A stretch of DNA of 7,942 bases from a virus. Lineage: Duplodnaviria > Heunggongvirae > Uroviricota > Caudoviricetes. Below, in pieces: positions 1-7,942 of the stretch. The stretch lies in IMG/VR virus record IMGVR_UViG_2740892235_000013, one strand, 5' to 3'. The notes beneath the pieces were generated by a model that saw only the letters and a list, made by a program, of their open reading frames with translations, was not told where the DNA came from and did not search any database. The translations under genes were made by a program, and so were the position numbers. Every line of letters starts with the position of its first letter. The first letter of the stretch is position 1.

Positions 1-137
1 ATGCCGAGAATAATCGAATTACGCCAGCAGAAAACCGCCATTAAAAATCAGATGCGCGACATGCTGGAGAACGCGGAAAAAGAAAACCGCAGTCTTAACG
101 ATGCTGAGGGCGCAAAATTTGACGAATTACGCGCTAA
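1..137 (+). CDS. Orphan 5' fragment (45 codons) of a second major-capsid gene copy, truncated by the N run at 138-147
   Basis: Bases 1-137 match 538-674 (start of the capsid gene) with 2 substitutions: codon 2 ccg vs cag (Pro vs Gln) and cgc vs cgt (synonymous). Translation MPRIIELRQQKTAIKNQMRDMLENAEKENRSLNDAEGAKFDELRA. Followed directly by 10 N. Confidence 0.6.
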
Positions 138-147
138 NNNNNNNNNN
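138..147. other. Assembly gap (10 N); left and right flanks are not colinear
   Basis: Run of exactly 10 n. Left flank is a capsid 5' fragment, right flank is the 3' end of an unrelated ORF; unlike the other four gaps there is no tandem overlap across it. Confidence 0.9.
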
Positions 148-148
148 G

Positions 149-250
149 GATAACTTCGGAGACCTGAGAAAGGCAGTCGATCGCACTTATGCTGAAATGG
201 GTATGGATGGTGTAAGCGATGAAATATGGCGTAATTACACAGACAGCTAA
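149..250 (+). CDS. 3' terminal fragment (33 codons) of an unidentified upstream gene; 5' part lost in the gap
   Basis: Open frame from the gap edge, ...DNFGDLRKAVDRTYAEMGMDGVSDEIWRNYTDS, stop TAA 248-250, followed 6 nt later by a strong intrinsic terminator. A 33-codon open frame alone is weak evidence; the terminator placement supports it. Confidence 0.35.
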   Translation, partial: DNFGDLRKAVDRTYAEMGMDGVSDEIWRNYTDS

Positions 251-255
251 TCAAC

Positions 256-287
256 AGCCGGAGCAATCCGGCTTTTTGTTATTTTTT
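256..287 (+). terminator. Rho-independent terminator downstream of the upstream gene fragment
   Basis: Perfect 7-bp stem agccgga (256-262) / tccggct (267-273) with 4-nt loop gcaa, followed by a T-rich tract ttttgttatttttt. Confidence 0.7.
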
Positions 288-398
288 GTAAATTATTTGT
301 TCGTGGTTGTTCCACGTTGTTCACTGAGCGGATCGGCATATTTTACCCGAACTGAATCATGATTATTCTCGCCCGTGGTGCCAGGACGCTGGGGCCAC

Positions 399-446
399 TT
401 TCCCGCCTGTTAATGTGCCCGCCAATATTCATTACCAGGCGGGAAA
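399..446. promoter_or_regulatory. Perfect 11-bp inverted repeat with 26-nt spacer in the capsid leader; candidate operator or RNA structure
   Basis: tttcccgcctg (399-409) is the exact reverse complement of caggcgggaaa (436-446). It lies in a 287-bp non-coding leader (251-537) with no ORF on either strand. Confidence 0.3.
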
Positions 447-537
447 ACGATCGGTGCGATTGCTGATTTCCTTATGAAAAACGGTTGAGTGTTTGCCGCG
501 TCCTGGAGTTCCTTACTTAACCCCAGGACTTTTTTTT

Positions 538-1838
538 ATGCAGAGAATAATCGAATTACGCCAGCAGAAAACCGCCATTAAAAATCAGATGCGTGACATG
601 CTGGAGAACGCGGAAAAAGAAAACCGCAGTCTTAACGATGCTGAGGGCGCAAAATTTGACGAATTACGCGCTAAAGCTGAATCCCTCGATAAAGACATTT
701 CCCGCCTTGAAGCCATTGCAGACGAAGAGCGCAGCAAGCCAGGTAAAAGCAGTCAGACCACTGACCCCGCAGAACTACGAAACTACATTCTGACGGGTGA
801 AACCCGCGCATTAAGTACAGGCGTTCCCGCTGATGGTGGTTATACCGTTATCCCCGAGCTGAACACCGAAATCATGCGAATGCTGGCGGATGAGTCCACC
901 ATGCGCCGCATCTGTACCGTGAAGAAAATCAGCAGCAACGAGTTTAAGCAGCTTGTTTCCGCTGGCGGTGCGACCGTTAACCACGGTGAAGAGGGTAAGA
1001 CACGCGAACAGACCAGCACCCCGCAGATTAACGAGGTGAGCATTAAGCTGTATCCGGTCTATGCGTACCCGCGCACCACACAGGAAATCGTGGATTTTTC
1101 CGATGTGGACATCCTTTCATGGCTGACGGGTGAGATTGGCGACACCTTCACGGAAACCGAAGAAAGCGATCTGGTTGTGGGCGACGGTGACAAAAAAGCA
1201 AAAGGTTTTTTATCCGTACCCCGTGCAGAGAAGAACGACAAAGAGCGTGATTTTGGTTCGTTGCAGGTAATTAAACCTTCCGAATCTCTGGCGTGGACAT
1301 CTGCGGACCCGTTGATCGACCTGAAATTTGCATTACGTNNNNNNNNNNCTTTTTATCCGTACCCCGTGCAGAGAAGAACGACAAAGAGCGTGATTTTGGT
1401 ACGTTGCAGGTAATTAAACCTTCCGAATCTCTGGCGTGGACATCTGCGGACCCGTTGATCGACCTGAAATTTGCATTACGTAAAAAATACCGCAAAAACG
1501 CGGTCTGGGTGGTTAACTCCACGACGGCGGCAAAACTTCAGAAGGTGAAGAACGCGAACGGTGATTACATCTGGCGCGACCGTTTACAGGCGGGTGATCC
1601 TGATACGTTGCTGGGCCTTCCGGTCGAATATCTGGAGTTTATGCCTGATAACGTTATTGCCCTGGGTGACTTCAAACGCGGTTACTACATTGTTGATCAC
1701 GAAACAGGTGTTCGCACCAGACCGGACAACCTCACAGAGCCGGGCTTCATCAAAATTTTCACGCAGAAATATTTAGGCGGTGGCGTGGTGGATTCGAACG
1801 CGATCAAGATTCTGGAACTGCCACAGGACGACGATTAA
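538..1838 (+). CDS. Major capsid protein, HK97 fold (about 385 aa once the assembly duplication is collapsed)
   Basis: ATG 538 with AGGA 525-528 upstream; stop TAA 1836-1838. N-terminal coiled-coil delta-domain-like region (IIELRQQKTAIKNQMRDMLENAEKENRSLNDAEGAKFDELRAKAESLDKDISRLEAI), then HK97-capsid-like blocks (GGYTVIPEL, LVVGDGDKKAKGFL, YIWRDRLQAGDPDTLLGLPVEY, GDFKRGYYIVDHETG). The frame is broken only by the N run at 1339-1348 plus a 133-bp duplication (143 nt net, not a multiple of 3). Collapsed length is 1158 bp. Confidence 0.9.
1206..1481. repeat. Tandem near-identical overlap (1206-1338 and 1349-1481) around the 10-N gap at 1339-1348; assembly artefact inside the capsid gene
   Basis: The sequence right of the gap restarts 133 bp upstream of where the left copy ends. 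One substitution between copies (ggttcg vs ggtacg, Ser vs Thr). Confidence 0.85.
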
Positions 1839-1848
1839 CAGCATACAG

Positions 1849-1877
1849 AAGGGGCTTAAAAGCCCCTTTAGTGTTTT
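1849..1877 (+). terminator. Intrinsic terminator or attenuator immediately after the capsid gene
   Basis: 8-bp perfect stem aaggggct (1849-1856) / agcccctt (1861-1868), loop taaa, then tagtgtttt. The T tract is interrupted, so this may be a partial terminator. Confidence 0.6.
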
Positions 1878-1892
1878 ATGGGTGAAAAAATT

Positions 1893-2450
1893 ATGAAGAG
1901 TATGGAAATCCGGTCATCGGAAATCACCACCAGCGGAGCCGGTACGCTGACGGGCTACGTTGTTCGCTGGGATAAGCTTTCAGAACTGTTATGGGGTGAG
2001 TTTTACGAAAAATTCCAGCGGGGAGCGTTTACTGAATGGCTTGCAGCGGGTAATGACGTTCGCGGCCTGTATGAGCATGACCACAGCATGTTACTGGGGC
2101 GTACCCGTTCCGGCACGCTGAAACTGGAAGAGGACGAAACAGGGTTACGCTTTGAACTGACCCCACCGGATACCAGCACAGGGCGGGACGTTATCGAACT
2201 GGTTAAACGTGGTGATATATCCGGCATGAGCTTTGGCTTTCGTTCCCGTAAGGATGTATGGGATACCACAACAGAACCATGCGTGCGCACCGTGCTGGTG
2301 GCGGAACTGTACGAAATTACCGTTACATCCGTTCCGGCTTACCCTGATTCCGGCGTGGAGCTGGCCCGCCGTTCCCTGTATGAGCAGCACCCCGAAAAAA
2401 TGCCGCGTGCGGATAATCGCCGCTGGTGGGTGGATTTAGCGGGGGTGTGA
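1893..2450 (+). CDS. Prohead (head maturation) protease, HK97 family (peptidase S78-like)
   Basis: Family-typical His block (LYEHDHSMLLGRTRSGTL) and Ser block (DISGMSFGF). ATG 1893 has GGTGA 7 nt upstream; the in-frame ATG at 1878 has no RBS and sits inside the terminator T tract, so 1893 is preferred. Stop TGA 2448-2450. Confidence 0.88.
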   Translation: MKSMEIRSSEITTSGAGTLTGYVVRWDKLSELLWGEFYEKFQRGAFTEWLAAGNDVRGLYEHDHSMLLGRTRSGTLKLEEDETGLRFELTPPDTSTGRDVIELVKRGDISGMSFGFRSRKDVWDTTTEPCVRTVLVAELYEITVTSVPAYPDSGVELARRSLYEQHPEKMPRADNRRWWVDLAGV

Positions 2451-2451
2451 T

Positions 2452-3829
2452 ATGTGGCCTTTCAGAAGAAAAAAAGAGCAGCGCAGCATGACGCTTGATG
2501 AATTTATGGCGCTGGCTGGCACATCGAACACGGGGGCGGGTGAGTACGTATCATCGGGGACAGCGGAATCACTGCCCGCCGTCATGAACGCCGTCACGGT
2601 CATCTCTGAGGCGGTGGCTACCATGCCGTGTTACCTGTACCTGGTACGCAATGAGAAGGGGAAGGAGGCCCGCGAGTGGCTTGATTCTCATCCGGTCGAT
2701 CACATCCTCAACGAGCGCCCGAACGCATGGCAAACCCCCTACCAGTTTAAGCGAATGATGATCCGCCACTGCCTGTTAAACGGTAATGCTTATGCGGTGA
2801 TTCAGTGGGGGCGTGATGGTTTTCCGGTGGCTTTACATCCTTACCCGCCGCAGTCGGTGAACGTGGAGCAGACAGGTGAGCATAACTGGCGCTACTGCAT
2901 CACTGACGCCTACACCGGAAACACCCGCAACTATTTACCGTGGGAGGTTCTCCACCTTCGTTACTCCACGGATGACGGTTTTATGGGGCGCTCACCTGTA
3001 ACCATCTGCCGCGAATCGCTGGGGCTTGGGCTGGCCCAACAACGCCACGGCGCGAGCGTGATGCGTGATGGCATGATGGCGGCAGGGGTTATCACGTCAG
3101 GCGAATGGCTGGACGGCGTGAAGGGCAAACAGGCATTAGCCGCACTGGAACGCTACAAAGGGGCCAGAAACGCCGGAAAAACGCCCATCCTTGAAGGGGG
3201 TATGAGCTATCAGCAGCTGGGCATGAGTAATCAGGATGCTGAATGGCTGGCCTCCCGTCGCTTCACCATTGAAGACATCGCCCGAATGTTCAACGTCTCG
3301 CCGATTTTTTTNNNNNNNNNNTAAAGGGGCCAGAAACGCCGGAAAAACGCCCATCCTTGAAGGTGGCATGAGTTACCAGCAGCTGGGCATGAGTAACCAG
3401 GATGCTGAATGGCTGGCCTCCCGTCGCTTCACCATTGAAGACATCGCCCGAATGTTCAACGTCTCGCCGATTTTTTTGCAGGAATACAGCAACAGCACCT
3501 ACAGCAATTTCAGCGAGGCAAGCCGCGCATTTCTCACCATGACGATGCGCCCGTGGCTGGCGAACTTTGAGCAGCAGATAAAAAACGCCCTGCTGGTGGC
3601 CTCGCCTGTACCTGGTATCCGGTATCAGGTGGAGTTTGACAGCGCGGACCTGTTACGGGCCACACCTGGCGAACGCTTTGCCACCTATGAGCGCGGCATC
3701 AAATCCGGCGTTATGTGTCCGAACGAAGCCCGCGAACGTGAAGGACTGTCACCGCGTGATGGTGGTGATGAGTTCAGCCAGGCATGGAAACAGGAAGTAA
3801 AAATCAGCGAGGGAGAAAAACCGGAATGA
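2452..3829 (+). CDS. Portal protein, HK97 family (about 403 aa once the duplication is collapsed)
   Basis: ATG 2452 is 1 nt after the protease stop. Portal-like sequence throughout (RESLGLGLAQQ, GMSNQDAEWLASRRFTIEDIARMFNVSP, PWLANFEQQI). Frame broken only by the N run at 3312-3321 plus a 155-bp duplication (166 nt net). Stop TGA 3827-3829. Confidence 0.9.
3157..3477. repeat. Tandem near-identical overlap (3157-3311 and 3323-3477) around the 10-N gap at 3312-3321; assembly artefact inside the portal gene
   Basis: The copies differ at 5 positions, all synonymous third-codon changes (ggg/ggt, ggt/ggc, agc/agt, tat/tac, aat/aac). Confidence 0.85.
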
Positions 3830-4460
3830 ACATAGGGCGACTGCGTGACAGGGTAACGATTCAGACCCTGAAACAGACCAGGGATATAACCGGCGAAATA
3901 CTCGAAACGTGGGAGGACAGTCACACACTCTGGGCAAGCGTGAACATGGTCAGCAGCAAGGAGGCCATTTCATCGGGTGCAGAGCTGGCGATTGGTACCG
4001 TAAGGATCTGGATACGGTACCGGAAGGACATCAGCGCCACCAGCCGGATAAAGGTCAATACGGGGCCGCTGGCGGGGCGTGTACTGAATATCATCGGGCA
4101 GCCGCTGCCGGATGCCGCCAGGACACGCCTTGAAATTCNNNNNNNNNNATAACGATTCAGACCCTGAAACAGACCAGAGCCATGACGGGCGAAATACTCG
4201 AAACGTGGGAGGACGGTCACACACTCTGGGCAAGCGTGAACATGATCAGCAGCAAGGAGGCCATTTCATCGGGCGCAGAGCTGGCGATTGGTACCGTAAG
4301 GATCTGGATACGGTACCGGAAGGACATCAACGCCACCAGTCGGATAAAGGTCAGTACGGGGCCGCTGGCGGGGCGTGTACTGAATATCATCGGGCAGCCG
4401 CTGCCGGATGCCGCCAGGACACGCCTTGAAATTCTTTGTCGTGAGGGCGCGGAAAAATGA
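3826..4460 (+). CDS. Head-closure / head-tail joining protein (SPP1 gp16-like family), 112 aa once collapsed
   Basis: ATG 3826 overlaps the portal stop (ATGA). Family-like pattern LRDRVTIQ...GE..ETWED.HTLWASV...S.KEAISSGAELAIGTVRIWIRYRKDI. Frame interrupted by the N run at 4139-4148 plus a 286-bp duplication (296 nt net). Stop TGA 4458-4460. Confidence 0.8.
3854..4434. repeat. Tandem near-identical overlap (3854-4138 and 4150-4434) around the 10-N gap at 4139-4148; assembly artefact inside the head-closure gene
   Basis: About 10 substitutions between copies, including amino-acid changes (DI/AM, S/G, V/I, S/N, N/S) and synonymous changes. Confidence 0.85.
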
Positions 4461-4916
4461 CAGAAGAACTTATCACCCTGGAAGAAGTGAAACTCCATTG
4501 CCGCATCGATGGCGACGATGAAGACCAGTTAATCAGCGGATACATTGCCGCATCGCTTGAGGCGTGCCAGATACACATAGGCAGGCGCTTTGATGACGGG
4601 CTGGAGTTCACGCCAGCCATAAAGATTGGCTGCATGATGTTTATCGCTCACCTGTANNNNNNNNNNTATCGATGGCGACGAGGAAGACCAGTTAATCAGC
4701 GGATACATTGCCGCATCGCTTGAGGCGTGCCAGATACATATAGGCAGGCGCTTTGATGACGGGCTGGAGTTCACGCCAGCCATAAAGATTGGCTGCATGA
4801 TGTTTATCGCTCACCTGTATGAGAATCGCCAGATTGTCGCGGATAACGCAAAAACACGCGTACCCATGACGATTGGCGCACTCTGGACGGCTTACCGTGA
4901 TGTGGGGGTGTACTGA
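4457..4916 (+). CDS. gp6-like head-tail connector protein, 98 aa once collapsed
   Basis: ATG 4457 overlaps the upstream stop (ATGA). N-terminus MTEELITLEEVKLHCRIDGDDEDQLISGYIAASLEA is typical of gp6-like connectors. Frame interrupted by the N run at 4657-4666 plus a 152-bp duplication (163 nt net). Stop TGA 4914-4916. Confidence 0.75.
4505..4819. repeat. Tandem near-identical overlap (4505-4656 and 4668-4819) around the 10-N gap at 4657-4666; assembly artefact inside the connector gene
   Basis: Two substitutions between copies: gat/gag (Asp/Glu) and cac/cat (synonymous). Confidence 0.85.
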
Positions 4917-5356
4917 TGCCGTGGCAACCATTAAGACGATGCACAGAACCAGGCTGTAACAGGCGCGTTAAATCCGGCAAGTGTGAGGAGCACAGGCGGG
5001 CGGCATGGCGTGCAGAGGATGCCAGACGAGGACACCGCCGCGCGCGTGGATATTCCAGACAGTGGGACAAATACCGCGCCATGTATCTGAGTAAAAACCC
5101 GTTATGCGTGCGATGCCTTGAGAAGGGGATATATACGCCCGCCGTGGTGGTGGATCACATTATCCCGATTAATGGCGGTGATGATGTTCTCTTCTGGCCC
5201 GAATGGAACCATCAACCATTGTGCCAGGCGTGTCATAACCAGAAAACGAAATGGCTTGATCCGGCAACAAAAAGCAAGCGTGCCGCAGGTGGATTTCGTG
5301 AAGAGGAAGAACGGGCCGCTAACCGCAATAACTGGATGTATGACGCTGATGAATGA
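4916..5356 (+). CDS. HNH endonuclease (phage packaging-associated type), 146 aa
   Basis: ATG 4916 overlaps the connector stop (TGATG). Cys-rich N-terminus (CTEPGCNRRVKSGKCEEH) and HNH core (VVDHIIPINGG...NHQPLCQACHNQKT). Stop TGA 5354-5356. Confidence 0.9.
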   Translation: MPWQPLRRCTEPGCNRRVKSGKCEEHRRAAWRAEDARRGHRRARGYSRQWDKYRAMYLSKNPLCVRCLEKGIYTPAVVVDHIIPINGGDDVLFWPEWNHQPLCQACHNQKTKWLDPATKSKRAAGGFREEEERAANRNNWMYDADE

Positions 5357-5522
5357 GCGGGAGCAAAACCGCCTTATCCGTGGACTTATAAGGCAGCGTG
5401 ACGCATGGAAGACACAGGAAACAGGGCATAAAGATAAAGCGTCAGGACGCGCAGAACGCATCACAGCGAAGCGATTAACCGACCGTGACCGCGAGGTTAT
5501 GGAATGTTTCCGCAATCGCTGA
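5349..5522 (+). CDS. Small hypothetical protein (57 aa, Arg/Lys-rich)
   Basis: ATG 5349 overlaps the HNH stop by 8 nt (ATGAATGA). Translation MNEREQNRLIRGLIRQRDAWKTQETGHKDKASGRAERITAKRLTDRDREVMECFRNR. No clear RBS, so translation would have to be coupled. No recognisable family. Confidence 0.4.
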   Translation: MNEREQNRLIRGLIRQRDAWKTQETGHKDKASGRAERITAKRLTDRDREVMECFRNR

Positions 5523-5645
5523 TGAGGCTGTATGACGGGGTGGGGGGCGTTTTCAGGACCAACCCGACCCCGCCGGGCACCGAACGCCTCCTCAAATTTT
5601 TATGCACGGGAATTTTTTGAAAAATAATCTGGCGAAAAAATAAGC
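5523..5645. promoter_or_regulatory. Non-coding spacer upstream of terS; candidate cos/packaging-initiation region
   Basis: 123 bp with no ORF. G-run gacggggtggggggcgttttcagg followed by C-rich caacccgaccccgccgggcaccg, then an AT-rich tract (aaatttttatgcacgggaattttttgaaaaataat). Sits between HNH and terS, where cos lies in HK97-type phages. Confidence 0.35.
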
Positions 5646-6002
5646 ATGGCAAGACCACCGAAAGCCCCCGCCTACCTGGATGATATCGCCGTGAAGCAGT
5701 GGCGGGAAAAATCGCGGCAGCTTGCGGAACGGGGAGACCTGACCCCCGCCGACTGGAGCAATCTGGAACTGTATTGTGTCAACTACTCCATTTACCGGAA
5801 AGCCGTTGCAGACCTTGCGGCGCGCGGGTTCAGCATTGTTAACAGTCAGGGCGGCGAGAGCAGAAACCCCGCATTAAGCGCAAAATCCGACGCTGAAAGA
5901 GTGATGATAAAAATGGCCTCCTTGCTCGGTTTTGACCCGATAAGCCGCCGTAAAAATCCACCGGAAACAGAAGAAGAGGACGAGCTTGACCGCCTGGAAT
6001 AA
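5646..6002 (+). CDS. terS: Terminase small subunit, P27 family, 118 aa
   Basis: ATG 5646, stop TAA 6000-6002. P27-family-like pattern (LTPADWSNLELYCVNYSIYRKA...NPALSAKSDAERVMIKMASLLGFDPISRRK) with an acidic C-terminus. Confidence 0.85.
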   Translation: MARPPKAPAYLDDIAVKQWREKSRQLAERGDLTPADWSNLELYCVNYSIYRKAVADLAARGFSIVNSQGGESRNPALSAKSDAERVMIKMASLLGFDPISRRKNPPETEEEDELDRLE

Positions 6003-7647
6003 GTACGCAGAAGACGTAAAAACGGGCAAAATTCCGGCCTGTAAACGGCTGAAACAGGCCGTTAAACGGTACTTTTCGGACCTTGAAAGCCCCCTTTACA
6101 CGTTCGATCGTGAGGTTGTGGAGCGGTTTATTGCCTTTTCCAGGGTGTGCCCGCACGTAAAAGGGCCGATGCGTGGCAGACCCATTGAGCTGGAGCCGTG
6201 GCAGCAGTTCGCCTTTGCGTGCATCCTCGGCTTTAAGGTTAAGGCCACCGGACGGCGCAAATACACGAGCGCCTTTATCGAAGTGCCGCGCAAAAATGCG
6301 AAATCCACGACCGCCGCGATTCTGGCTAACTGGTTTCTGATTATGGAGAACGGGCAGCAGGATATTTACACCGCAGCGGTGAGCCGTGACCAGGCGCGGA
6401 TCGTTTTTGATGATGCGCGTCAGATGTGCCTTTTATCCCGACCGTTACGCAGGCGGGTGAATATTCAGGCCCACAAGGTGATGCACCCGAAAAGCAACAG
6501 CCTGTTAAAGCCGCTGGCAGCAAAAGCGGCAACCATCGAGGGAACAAACCCCAGCCTTTCCATCGTGGACGAATACCACCTACACCCCGATAACGGCGTT
6601 TATTCCGCGCTTGAGCTGGGGATGGGCGCACGTCCCGAAGGGCTGTTATTTGCCATTACCACATCGGGCAGTAACGTCGTTTCAGCCTGTAAACAGCACT
6701 ATGATTATTGCTGCCAGATCCTGGACGGCGAAGAGGTCAATGATTCAATTTTTGTGCTGATTTACGAGCTGGACGACGAAAACGAGGTTGATGATCCGGC
6801 GATGTGGATAAAGGCTAACCCTAACATCGATGTTTCCGTGGATCGTGAAAAACTGGCCTCAACCATCCAGAAAGCGCGGGGTATTCCGTCGCAATGGGTG
6901 GAGATGATGACAAAGCGATTTAATATCTGGTGCCAGGGGGCTACCCCGTGGATGGGTAACGGCGCATGGGCTGAGTGTGCCGGAACGTTCACGGAGGAAG
7001 ATTTACACGGGCAGGAGTGTTACGCGGGGCTGGACTTATCATCAACCAGCGATATTTCCAGCGTGTGCTATGCCTTTCCGGTCGGTAAAAATATCATGCT
7101 GGTTTCCCGTCATTATCTGCCGGAGTTCCAGCTACAGAACCCCGCCAATAAAAACCGCGCTGTCTATCGCCAGTGGGCTAAAGCGGGCTGGATACGCACA
7201 ACGCCAGGTGACTGCATTGATTACGACCGGATCAGAGATGACATCATGCAGGATGCGGAGAAATTTAATATCAGGCTGGTGGGCTTTGATACGTGGAACG
7301 CCACGCATCTCAGGACGCAATTACAGGGGGCTGGTTTTGAGGTGGAGCCGTTCCCGCAAACCTACCTCAGATTCAGTCCGGCGGCGAAATCGTTCGAAGT
7401 TTTTGTTAACCGCAGGGTGATTGTGCATCGTGGCGATCCGGTGTTGTCCTGGTCGATGAGTAACGTCGTGATGCAGAGTGACGCGAACGCCAATATCAAG
7501 CCGAACAAGAAAAAATCACCGAACAAGATAGACCCGAGCGTAGCGGCGCTGATGGCGTTTGGTACATTCCAGGCAGAGCATGAGGATTTTGCTTTTGATA
7601 TAAGCGACAGCCACCGCCAGAAACTGGAAGAATTTAGCGGGGTGTAA
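5986..7647 (+). CDS. terL: Terminase large subunit, 553 aa
   Basis: TTG 5986 is the only start codon in frame after the upstream stop at 5941-5943; it overlaps terS by 17 nt with a purine-rich stretch (gaagaagagga) upstream. N-terminal blocks typical of this terminase family (YAEDVKTGKIPACKRLKQAVKRY, HVKGPMRGRPIELEPWQQF), P-loop-like PRKNAKSTTAA, acidic nuclease-domain residues downstream. Stop TAA 7645-7647. Confidence 0.9.
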   Translation: MTAWNKYAEDVKTGKIPACKRLKQAVKRYFSDLESPLYTFDREVVERFIAFSRVCPHVKGPMRGRPIELEPWQQFAFACILGFKVKATGRRKYTSAFIEVPRKNAKSTTAAILANWFLIMENGQQDIYTAAVSRDQARIVFDDARQMCLLSRPLRRRVNIQAHKVMHPKSNSLLKPLAAKAATIEGTNPSLSIVDEYHLHPDNGVYSALELGMGARPEGLLFAITTSGSNVVSACKQHYDYCCQILDGEEVNDSIFVLIYELDDENEVDDPAMWIKANPNIDVSVDREKLASTIQKARGIPSQWVEMMTKRFNIWCQGATPWMGNGAWAECAGTFTEEDLHGQECYAGLDLSSTSDISSVCYAFPVGKNIMLVSRHYLPEFQLQNPANKNRAVYRQWAKAGWIRTTPGDCIDYDRIRDDIMQDAEKFNIRLVGFDTWNATHLRTQLQGAGFEVEPFPQTYLRFSPAAKSFEVFVNRRVIVHRGDPVLSWSMSNVVMQSDANANIKPNKKKSPNKIDPSVAALMAFGTFQAEHEDFAFDISDSHRQKLEEFSGV

Positions 7648-7660
7648 TGAGGTCAGCAGC

Positions 7661-7942
7661 ATGACAGAAGCCGAAATACTGCGATTAATCCGCCGCGTCT
7701 CTGGAATCAGCCAGCAGGCTGACGAACAGACCACGCAGCCGGACAGCGTGACAGCCGAAAATTATGCGCGTGTTGTTGCTGAGGTGATGCGCCGTGATGG
7801 TATCCAGCTTAATGATGCGGATATGCGCGACATACGGATCCGCGTTCTGGAAATGCTGGCCTACAATCGCCGCGTTGAACTGTATCGGGAGAAGGAGAAA
7901 ATCACGTATCACTGGAAGAAGCCGGAGCGGTTACGGCGGTAA
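7661..7942 (+). CDS. Hypothetical protein (93 aa) immediately downstream of terL
   Basis: ATG 7661 with GAGG 8 nt upstream; stop TAA 7940-7942 at the window edge. Translation MTEAEILRLIRRVSGISQQADEQTT...; no recognisable family. Occupies the position where a portal gene sits in canonical phages. Confidence 0.5.
   Translation: MTEAEILRLIRRVSGISQQADEQTTQPDSVTAENYARVVAEVMRRDGIQLNDADMRDIRIRVLEMLAYNRRVELYREKEKITYHWKKPERLRR

Follow-up and report, generated by a model that had tools for sequence, protein, structure and literature searches.

An apparently orphan capsid gene start in a draft Escherichia coli phage satellite is very probably an assembler artefact left by a second, near-identical copy

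The stretch of DNA analysed here (7,942 nucleotides; IMG/VR record IMGVR_UViG_2740892235_000013; referred to in its entirety as the window) represents positions 141-8082 of the Escherichia coli draft scaffold CCQJ01000078.1 (68,632 bp; GCA_000753315.1), and opens with the start of a capsid gene that is separated by ten Ns from the sequence to its right. This seemingly 'orphan' capsid fragment is very probably an assembler artefact, i.e. a remnant carrying the alternative allele of another, near-identical copy of a capsid-forming PICI (cf-PICI). It was also considered highly likely that the locus carries no truncated capsid gene and that, physically, perC does not adjoin the fragment. Irrespective of whether the sample contained two islands or a mixed culture, the fragment at the first gap is no physical feature of the locus.

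Gene content and element type

Judged from its genes, the window covers the packaging half of an island belonging to a known type of E. coli phage satellite, the cf-PICI. Its genes are encoded on the forward strand in the order capsid-protease-portal-connectors-HNH-TerS-TerL (window 538-7647), an order that is conserved in all related loci. The HK97-type major capsid gene (538-1838; PF05065) encodes a protein of 385 aa when the duplicated arm at 1349-1481 and the associated ten Ns are left out, and is followed by genes for a prohead protease (1878-2450; Peptidase_S78 according to Pfam), a portal protein (2452-3829), a head-closure protein (3826-4460; PF05521) and a head-tail connector (4457-4916; PF05135), the last three of which encode 403, 112 and 98 aa, respectively, once the duplications within them (bubbles 3, 4 and 5, described below) are collapsed. 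An HNH endonuclease gene (4916-5356), a small terminase gene of the Terminase_4 / P27 family (5646-6002) and a large terminase gene specifying 553 aa (5986-7647) complete the module, and a conserved 93-aa ORF (7661-7942), which is common to another PICI type at the yejO site, forms the right end of the island. In one related locus (L006 6391-7218; GCA_052714105.1), the capsid frame was found to break off at 275 aa and is not called as a gene, which possibly represents a pseudogene.

The prototype of the cf-PICIs is EcCIEDL933 of E. coli O157:H7, and members of this group, which measure about 10-15 kb, encode their own capsid-formation and packaging genes and are devoid of tail and lysis genes; helper-phage induction, small capsids and the use of helper tails are experimental properties of these elements (bioRxiv 10.1101/2022.09.08.507074), while here the genes alone were read. 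Pfam and RefSeq annotation identified the corresponding major capsid, protease, portal, connector, HNH, TerS and TerL genes, and the relatives in complete genomes likewise have no tail or lysis genes. Counted from int up to and including the 93-aa ORF, these relatives span about 15.5 kb between chromosomal genes (roxA/phoQ or tqsA/ydgV). Their first half comprises, in this order, an integrase, an AlpA-type HTH protein, small ORFs, a RepA helicase or D5-type primase, SSB and PerC, after which come capsid, S78 protease, portal, head-closure protein, connector, HNH, TerS, TerL and the 93-aa ORF. The PICI backbone (int, alpA and the replication module) is present in all related loci; the source scaffold itself starts inside perC, so that only the packaging half is represented.

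A capsid gene start at the scaffold's left end

Comparison within the window confirmed the preliminary description in that positions 1-137 reproduce the first 45 codons of the capsid gene with two substitutions, namely at position 5 (C versus A, which changes codon 2 from CAG, Gln, to CCG, Pro) and at position 57 (C versus T, silent). The matching segment, 538-674, is the only one in the window, as no further copy of 1-137 with fewer than 30 mismatches was found there. The likeness is for this reason not attributable to chance, and a chance match was rejected. The observation that the fragment is followed by ten Ns (138-147) and then by the 3′ end of another gene's ORF (perC, 148-250) was equally borne out.

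The product deduced from 1-153 (50 aa, with X for the Ns) was shown to occur on one record only, CCQJ01000078.1, as a gene at 141-293. To the left of the window, this scaffold has 140 bp more, up to its first base, which repeat the sequence found upstream of the capsid ATG. Window 1-137 thus represents the last 137 nt, on the forward strand, of a mini-contig of 277 bp (scaffold 1-277; the first of six pieces, designated c1 through to c6) located at the very start of CCQJ01000078.1, the remaining 140 bp of which are hidden because the window begins at a gene call. End to end, c1 aligns with window 397-674 with five SNPs and a 1-nt indel in a T run (seven versus eight T), its first base being a mismatch to its counterpart. 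The true counterpart of c1 is accordingly the forward-strand segment 397-674, the arm belonging to what is termed haplotype B below, with variant sites at 397, 419, 469, 491, 530, 542 and 594, the last of which lies 80 nt before the segment's end (594 + 80 = 674). Window 1-137 (capsid codons 1-45, Pro-2 allele) is the haplotype A arm and the allelic duplicate of 538-674.

As the region represented by c1 is wholly covered by contig c2 to the right of the gap (window 148-1338), the flanks of the first gap overlap. The contrary statement, that the flanks of this gap do not overlap as they do at the other four, does not hold, since the final base of the left flank, 137, recurs at 674 just as the corresponding bases recur elsewhere; the apparent difference arises because the window hides half of c1. 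The 10-N run at 138-147 is therefore a scaffold spacer from which zero bases are missing, and the true distance across it is negative, the flanking pieces being allelic. Adjacency to whatever lies left of the gap had been regarded as merely unknown. It is almost certainly false, because scaffold 1-277 is placed in tandem with its own allelic counterpart.

The Pro-2 variant, as read from its occurrence in other genomes, is a genuine natural allele. Four complete genomes contain the entire c1 (277 bp) with 100% identity, the Pro-2 variant heading a full-length capsid gene in them, and 16 more contain its bases 2-277. Furthermore, Pro-2 heads a full-length, 385-aa capsid gene in nine of 12 related loci and is consequently the commoner allele; the seven-T form of the T run is also present in ten of 12 other loci.

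The region between perC and the capsid gene

The sequence to the right of the first gap had been considered unrelated to the capsid gene. It was instead shown to be the normal perC-to-capsid region: window 148-1338 recurs as one uninterrupted, 100% identical block in four complete E. coli genomes, where it is annotated as a PerC regulator and a major capsid gene, and 148-537 is for that reason the upstream region of this very capsid gene. The segment comprises the haplotype B 3′ end of a PerC-family regulator gene (148-250, forward strand; PF06069; 'PerC family transcriptional regulator' in RefSeq), which the source record calls as a 33-aa partial gene with the Pfam domain PF06069 PerC, and the cognate perC-capsid intergenic region (251-537, forward strand), which is likewise contiguous and 100% identical in the four genomes and includes a hairpin at 256-273. 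In O157:H7 genomes, the perC-capsid region is 98% identical. The start of piece c2 coincides with the first base at which haplotypes A and B diverge, namely that of a 3-bp indel between two perC alleles; the 5′ part of perC, upstream of this start, is almost identical in both.

Terminator-like hairpins with T tracts were observed at 256-283 (after perC) and 1848-1879 (after the capsid gene). With such hairpins at both ends, the capsid gene appears to be bracketed by terminators, yet the protease gene follows 40 bp further on the same strand. The perC-capsid spacer (the equivalent of window 251-537; L012 8485-9140 and L013 8104-8390) is a variable slot among related islands. At this location, islands of the haplotype A type (RM9245) carry an extra insert of ~350 bp that includes a 74-aa ORF, and some O157:H7-type islands harbour a different insert at this spacer, with genes annotated as 'hypothetical protein' and 'trigger factor'. 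PerC itself is shorter in the haplotype A-type islands, with 82 aa as compared with 90 aa in L013.

Duplications at five 10-N runs

Besides the first gap, the window contains four 10-N runs (1339-1348, 3312-3321, 4139-4148 and 4657-4666). The sequences flanking the five runs are duplications of 137 (277 in the source scaffold), 133, 156, 286 and 153 nt, respectively, with 96-99% identity. Bubble 2 (1206-1481) consists of a haplotype B arm (1206-1338), ten Ns and a haplotype A arm (1349-1481) that differ by two SNPs. The arms of bubble 3, within the portal gene (3156-3311 and 3322-3477), differ by six SNPs, those of bubble 4, within the head-closure gene (3853-4138 and 4149-4434), by 12, and those of bubble 5, within the connector gene (4504-4656 and 4667-4819), by three.

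The boundaries of these pieces were shown to follow a single rule. In all five cases, the distance from the last mismatch to the end of the left flank is exactly 80 nt (57 to 137, 1258 to 1338, 3231 to 3311, 4058 to 4138 and 4576 to 4656), and the right flanks at 1349, 3322, 4149 and 4667 start on a mismatching base; when c1 and c2 are included, all six pieces start on a variant base. Because each piece starts on a variant and ends 80 nt (k-1) past the last one, the five gaps are in all likelihood the two arms of de Bruijn bubbles at k=81, chained in tandem, with no real gap between them. Removal of each internal 10-N run together with its right arm, and of c1 together with its own ten Ns, yielded a collapsed sequence of 7,027 bp in which ORFs of 385, 190, 403, 98, 146, 118 and 93 aa have the same lengths as in complete genomes, and in which the head-closure and TerL frames are intact as well.

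Such an outcome would be expected if the sequenced DNA held two versions of the module that locally differ by about 1-4%, i.e. version A (RM9245-like) and version B (RM10042-like). Every cluster of differences would then open a two-armed bubble in a k=81 de Bruijn graph, and the last bases of those k-mers that contain at least one variant would cover the interval between the first variant and the position 80 nt beyond the final one. The stored sequence of a Velvet-type node reportedly consists of the last base of each of its k-mers, and we infer the type of assembler from this regularity. The assembler or scaffolder would have chosen neither arm but written both in series, with a minimum spacer of ten Ns between them. 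At the first gap, the A-allele node of 277 bp would begin with the first variant, which lies 140 bp upstream of the capsid ATG, and extend 80 nt beyond the last, and would have been put at the scaffold's left end, in front of a B-allele contig that already holds 397-674.

Five unrelated draft or metagenome contigs (L015-L019) were observed to begin at the start base of c6 or one base later (4667/4668). This suggests a polymorphic site at which short-read assemblies of islands of this family break time and again.

Assignment of the pieces to two haplotypes

The pieces were compared with two islands from complete genomes, L012 (RM9245, at the roxA/phoQ site) and L013 (RM10042, at the tqsA/ydgV site). 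Piece c1 showed no differences from L012 over its 277 positions, as against six from L013, while c2 (0/1191) and c5 (0/508) were identical to L013. Piece c4 was L012-like, with four differences from L012 compared with 17 from L013. The haplotypes that flank gaps 1 to 5 are A/B, B/A, B/A, A/B and B/A, respectively, and thus differ across every gap, and the ~30 variant sites of the five bubbles sort consistently into the two known haplotypes. As the pieces match the natural RM9245 and RM10042 haplotypes, the variants represent real alleles rather than errors.

Haplotype A spans the portal, head-closure and connector genes, and the finding consequently concerns a second packaging module of the cf-PICI type, not merely a second capsid start. 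From these matches, a second, closely related cf-PICI packaging module is read to be present in the sample, be it as a second genome copy or in a mixed culture. The preliminary description had offered a second capsid gene copy or a scaffold mis-join as alternatives; both parts stand, the junction being an artefact and the sample containing a second, slightly different capsid start. The suggestion that the fragment provides independent evidence for such a copy has to be given up, as the first gap is the same phenomenon as the other four.

Pieces c3 (1349-3311) and c6 (4667-7942) were observed to be internal mosaics of RM9245-like and RM10042-like sites, the switch in c3 being located between about 2979 and 3156. 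These mosaics could be the product of real recombination between satellites or of assembly chimerism through shared sequence longer than k.

Origin of the second module

We infer that the two islands probably resided in one chromosome. A search of complete genomes located the capsid-start region at 380 places in 361 genomes, with up to three per genome, and a longer perC-capsid query at up to five places per genome. About 5% of the genomes with the capsid-start region carry two or three copies, and two per genome is therefore common enough. A mixed or contaminated culture of two E. coli strains, each with one cf-PICI, would produce the same artefact of bubble arms joined by ten Ns, and it agrees with the observation that no complete genome of the collection holds both exact haplotypes, the lists of 100% matches of c1 and c2 being disjoint. 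Such a strain mixture would, however, be expected to generate bubbles throughout the chromosome, whereas in the first 10.3 kb of the scaffold the N runs are confined to the island module and none occurs in the 1.6-kb yejO flank, a short stretch that constitutes weak evidence. Other drafts moreover break at the same polymorphic base, as expected of a recurrent intragenomic repeat, and a mixed culture was accordingly judged unlikely.

Two further explanations dispense with a second module or with an artefact at the first gap. The fragment might be a genuine truncated 5′ capsid remnant that lies, together with its upstream region, beside perC, for instance as a scar of satellite recombination, and its placement by the scaffolder, presumably through read-pair links, agrees with this. 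The read pairs of an allelic copy would nevertheless link c1 to the same neighbours, and c1 is joined to perC through Ns alone, i.e. a junction sequence does not exist. In addition, c1 starts on a variant and ends 80 nt after the last one, like the four internal bubbles, and shares 100% identity with the beginning of intact capsid loci in other genomes. A real truncated gene, which appears very improbable, was rejected on the basis of the N-only join and the k-1 regularity. Spurious variant contigs created by sequencing errors, with no second copy in existence, are less probable still: one of the differences concerns homopolymer length (seven versus eight T), a typical type of error, yet the seven-T form recurs in other loci as described above, every variant base of c1 is that of the natural RM9245 allele, and the sites of all five bubbles fall into the two known haplotypes. 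Since both arms are exact natural alleles, sequencing error was rejected.

With regard to the arrangement of the islands, two near-identical cf-PICIs may be co-resident in one chromosome, perhaps together with a third, yejO-located satellite that has the right-end 0.9 kb in common with them, although this fuller scenario is tentative and somewhat less likely to be right than wrong. If such co-residence were true, the A/B mosaic of c3 and c6 would be real recombination between co-resident satellites and not assembly chimerism.

The yejO flank

Next to the 93-aa ORF, the source scaffold carries yejO, and the cf-PICI TerL gene continues into the yejO flank without Ns. Window 7661-7942 together with about 640 bp downstream (source locus L011 7801-10293) was observed to match, at ~99.5%, the satellite L014, a different PICI-type satellite located at the tRNA-Pro/yejO site of E. 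coli O22:H8 strain 154, which encodes a ClpP-protease/capsid fusion and has neither a portal gene nor terminase genes. Among 5,426 complete genomes, no match to the yejO flank extended back into the 3′ end of this TerL gene, and the best matches listed for the flank in complete genomes all start at the 93-aa ORF. As far as can be read from these alignments, either the cf-PICI occupies an unusual site or c6 is a chimera that was formed through a repeat.

Implications for the record

The five N-gaps of the record and its truncated or duplicated gene calls are artefacts, and the main value of the present analysis is one of caution. Among the artefactual calls are a 50-aa 'gene' (1-153) and the ORFs of the capsid, portal, head-closure and connector genes, which are split in the record; none of the artefacts is to be read as a pseudogene, fragment or rearrangement. 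The sole biological gain is that the sample has two closely related versions of the packaging module; carriage of multiple copies is already known from complete E. coli genomes, as is the cf-PICI as a type of element.

Comparison with known systems

The five gaps resemble tandem de Bruijn bubbles in their fixed-length N spacers, the near-identical duplicates on both sides, the k-1 ends and the restoration of the genes upon collapse. They differ from that model in that the assembler, the value of k and the minimum-gap convention are here read back from the sequence, and in that the left arm at the first gap is a lone 277-bp scaffold end, whereas elsewhere the arm ends a longer contig.

With respect to the element itself, the window shares its capsid and packaging gene set and the absence of tail and lysis genes with the cf-PICI EcCIEDL933, and its relatives of ~15 kb possess int, an alpA-type HTH gene and a replication module; the window covers the packaging half only, and the likeness to EcCIEDL933 is one of architecture. 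Compared with a full prophage, the related islands lack tail, lysis and lysogeny-switch genes and measure only about 15 kb. The module also resembles the head and packaging module of HK97-like siphophages, as is evident from the Phage_capsid (PF05065), Peptidase_S78, Phage_portal, Phage_HCP, Phage_connect_1, HNH, Terminase_4 and TerL assignments. HK97-type phages have the order TerS-TerL-portal-protease-capsid, with the terminases first and the capsid gene last, whereas in the island the capsid gene comes first and the terminases last.
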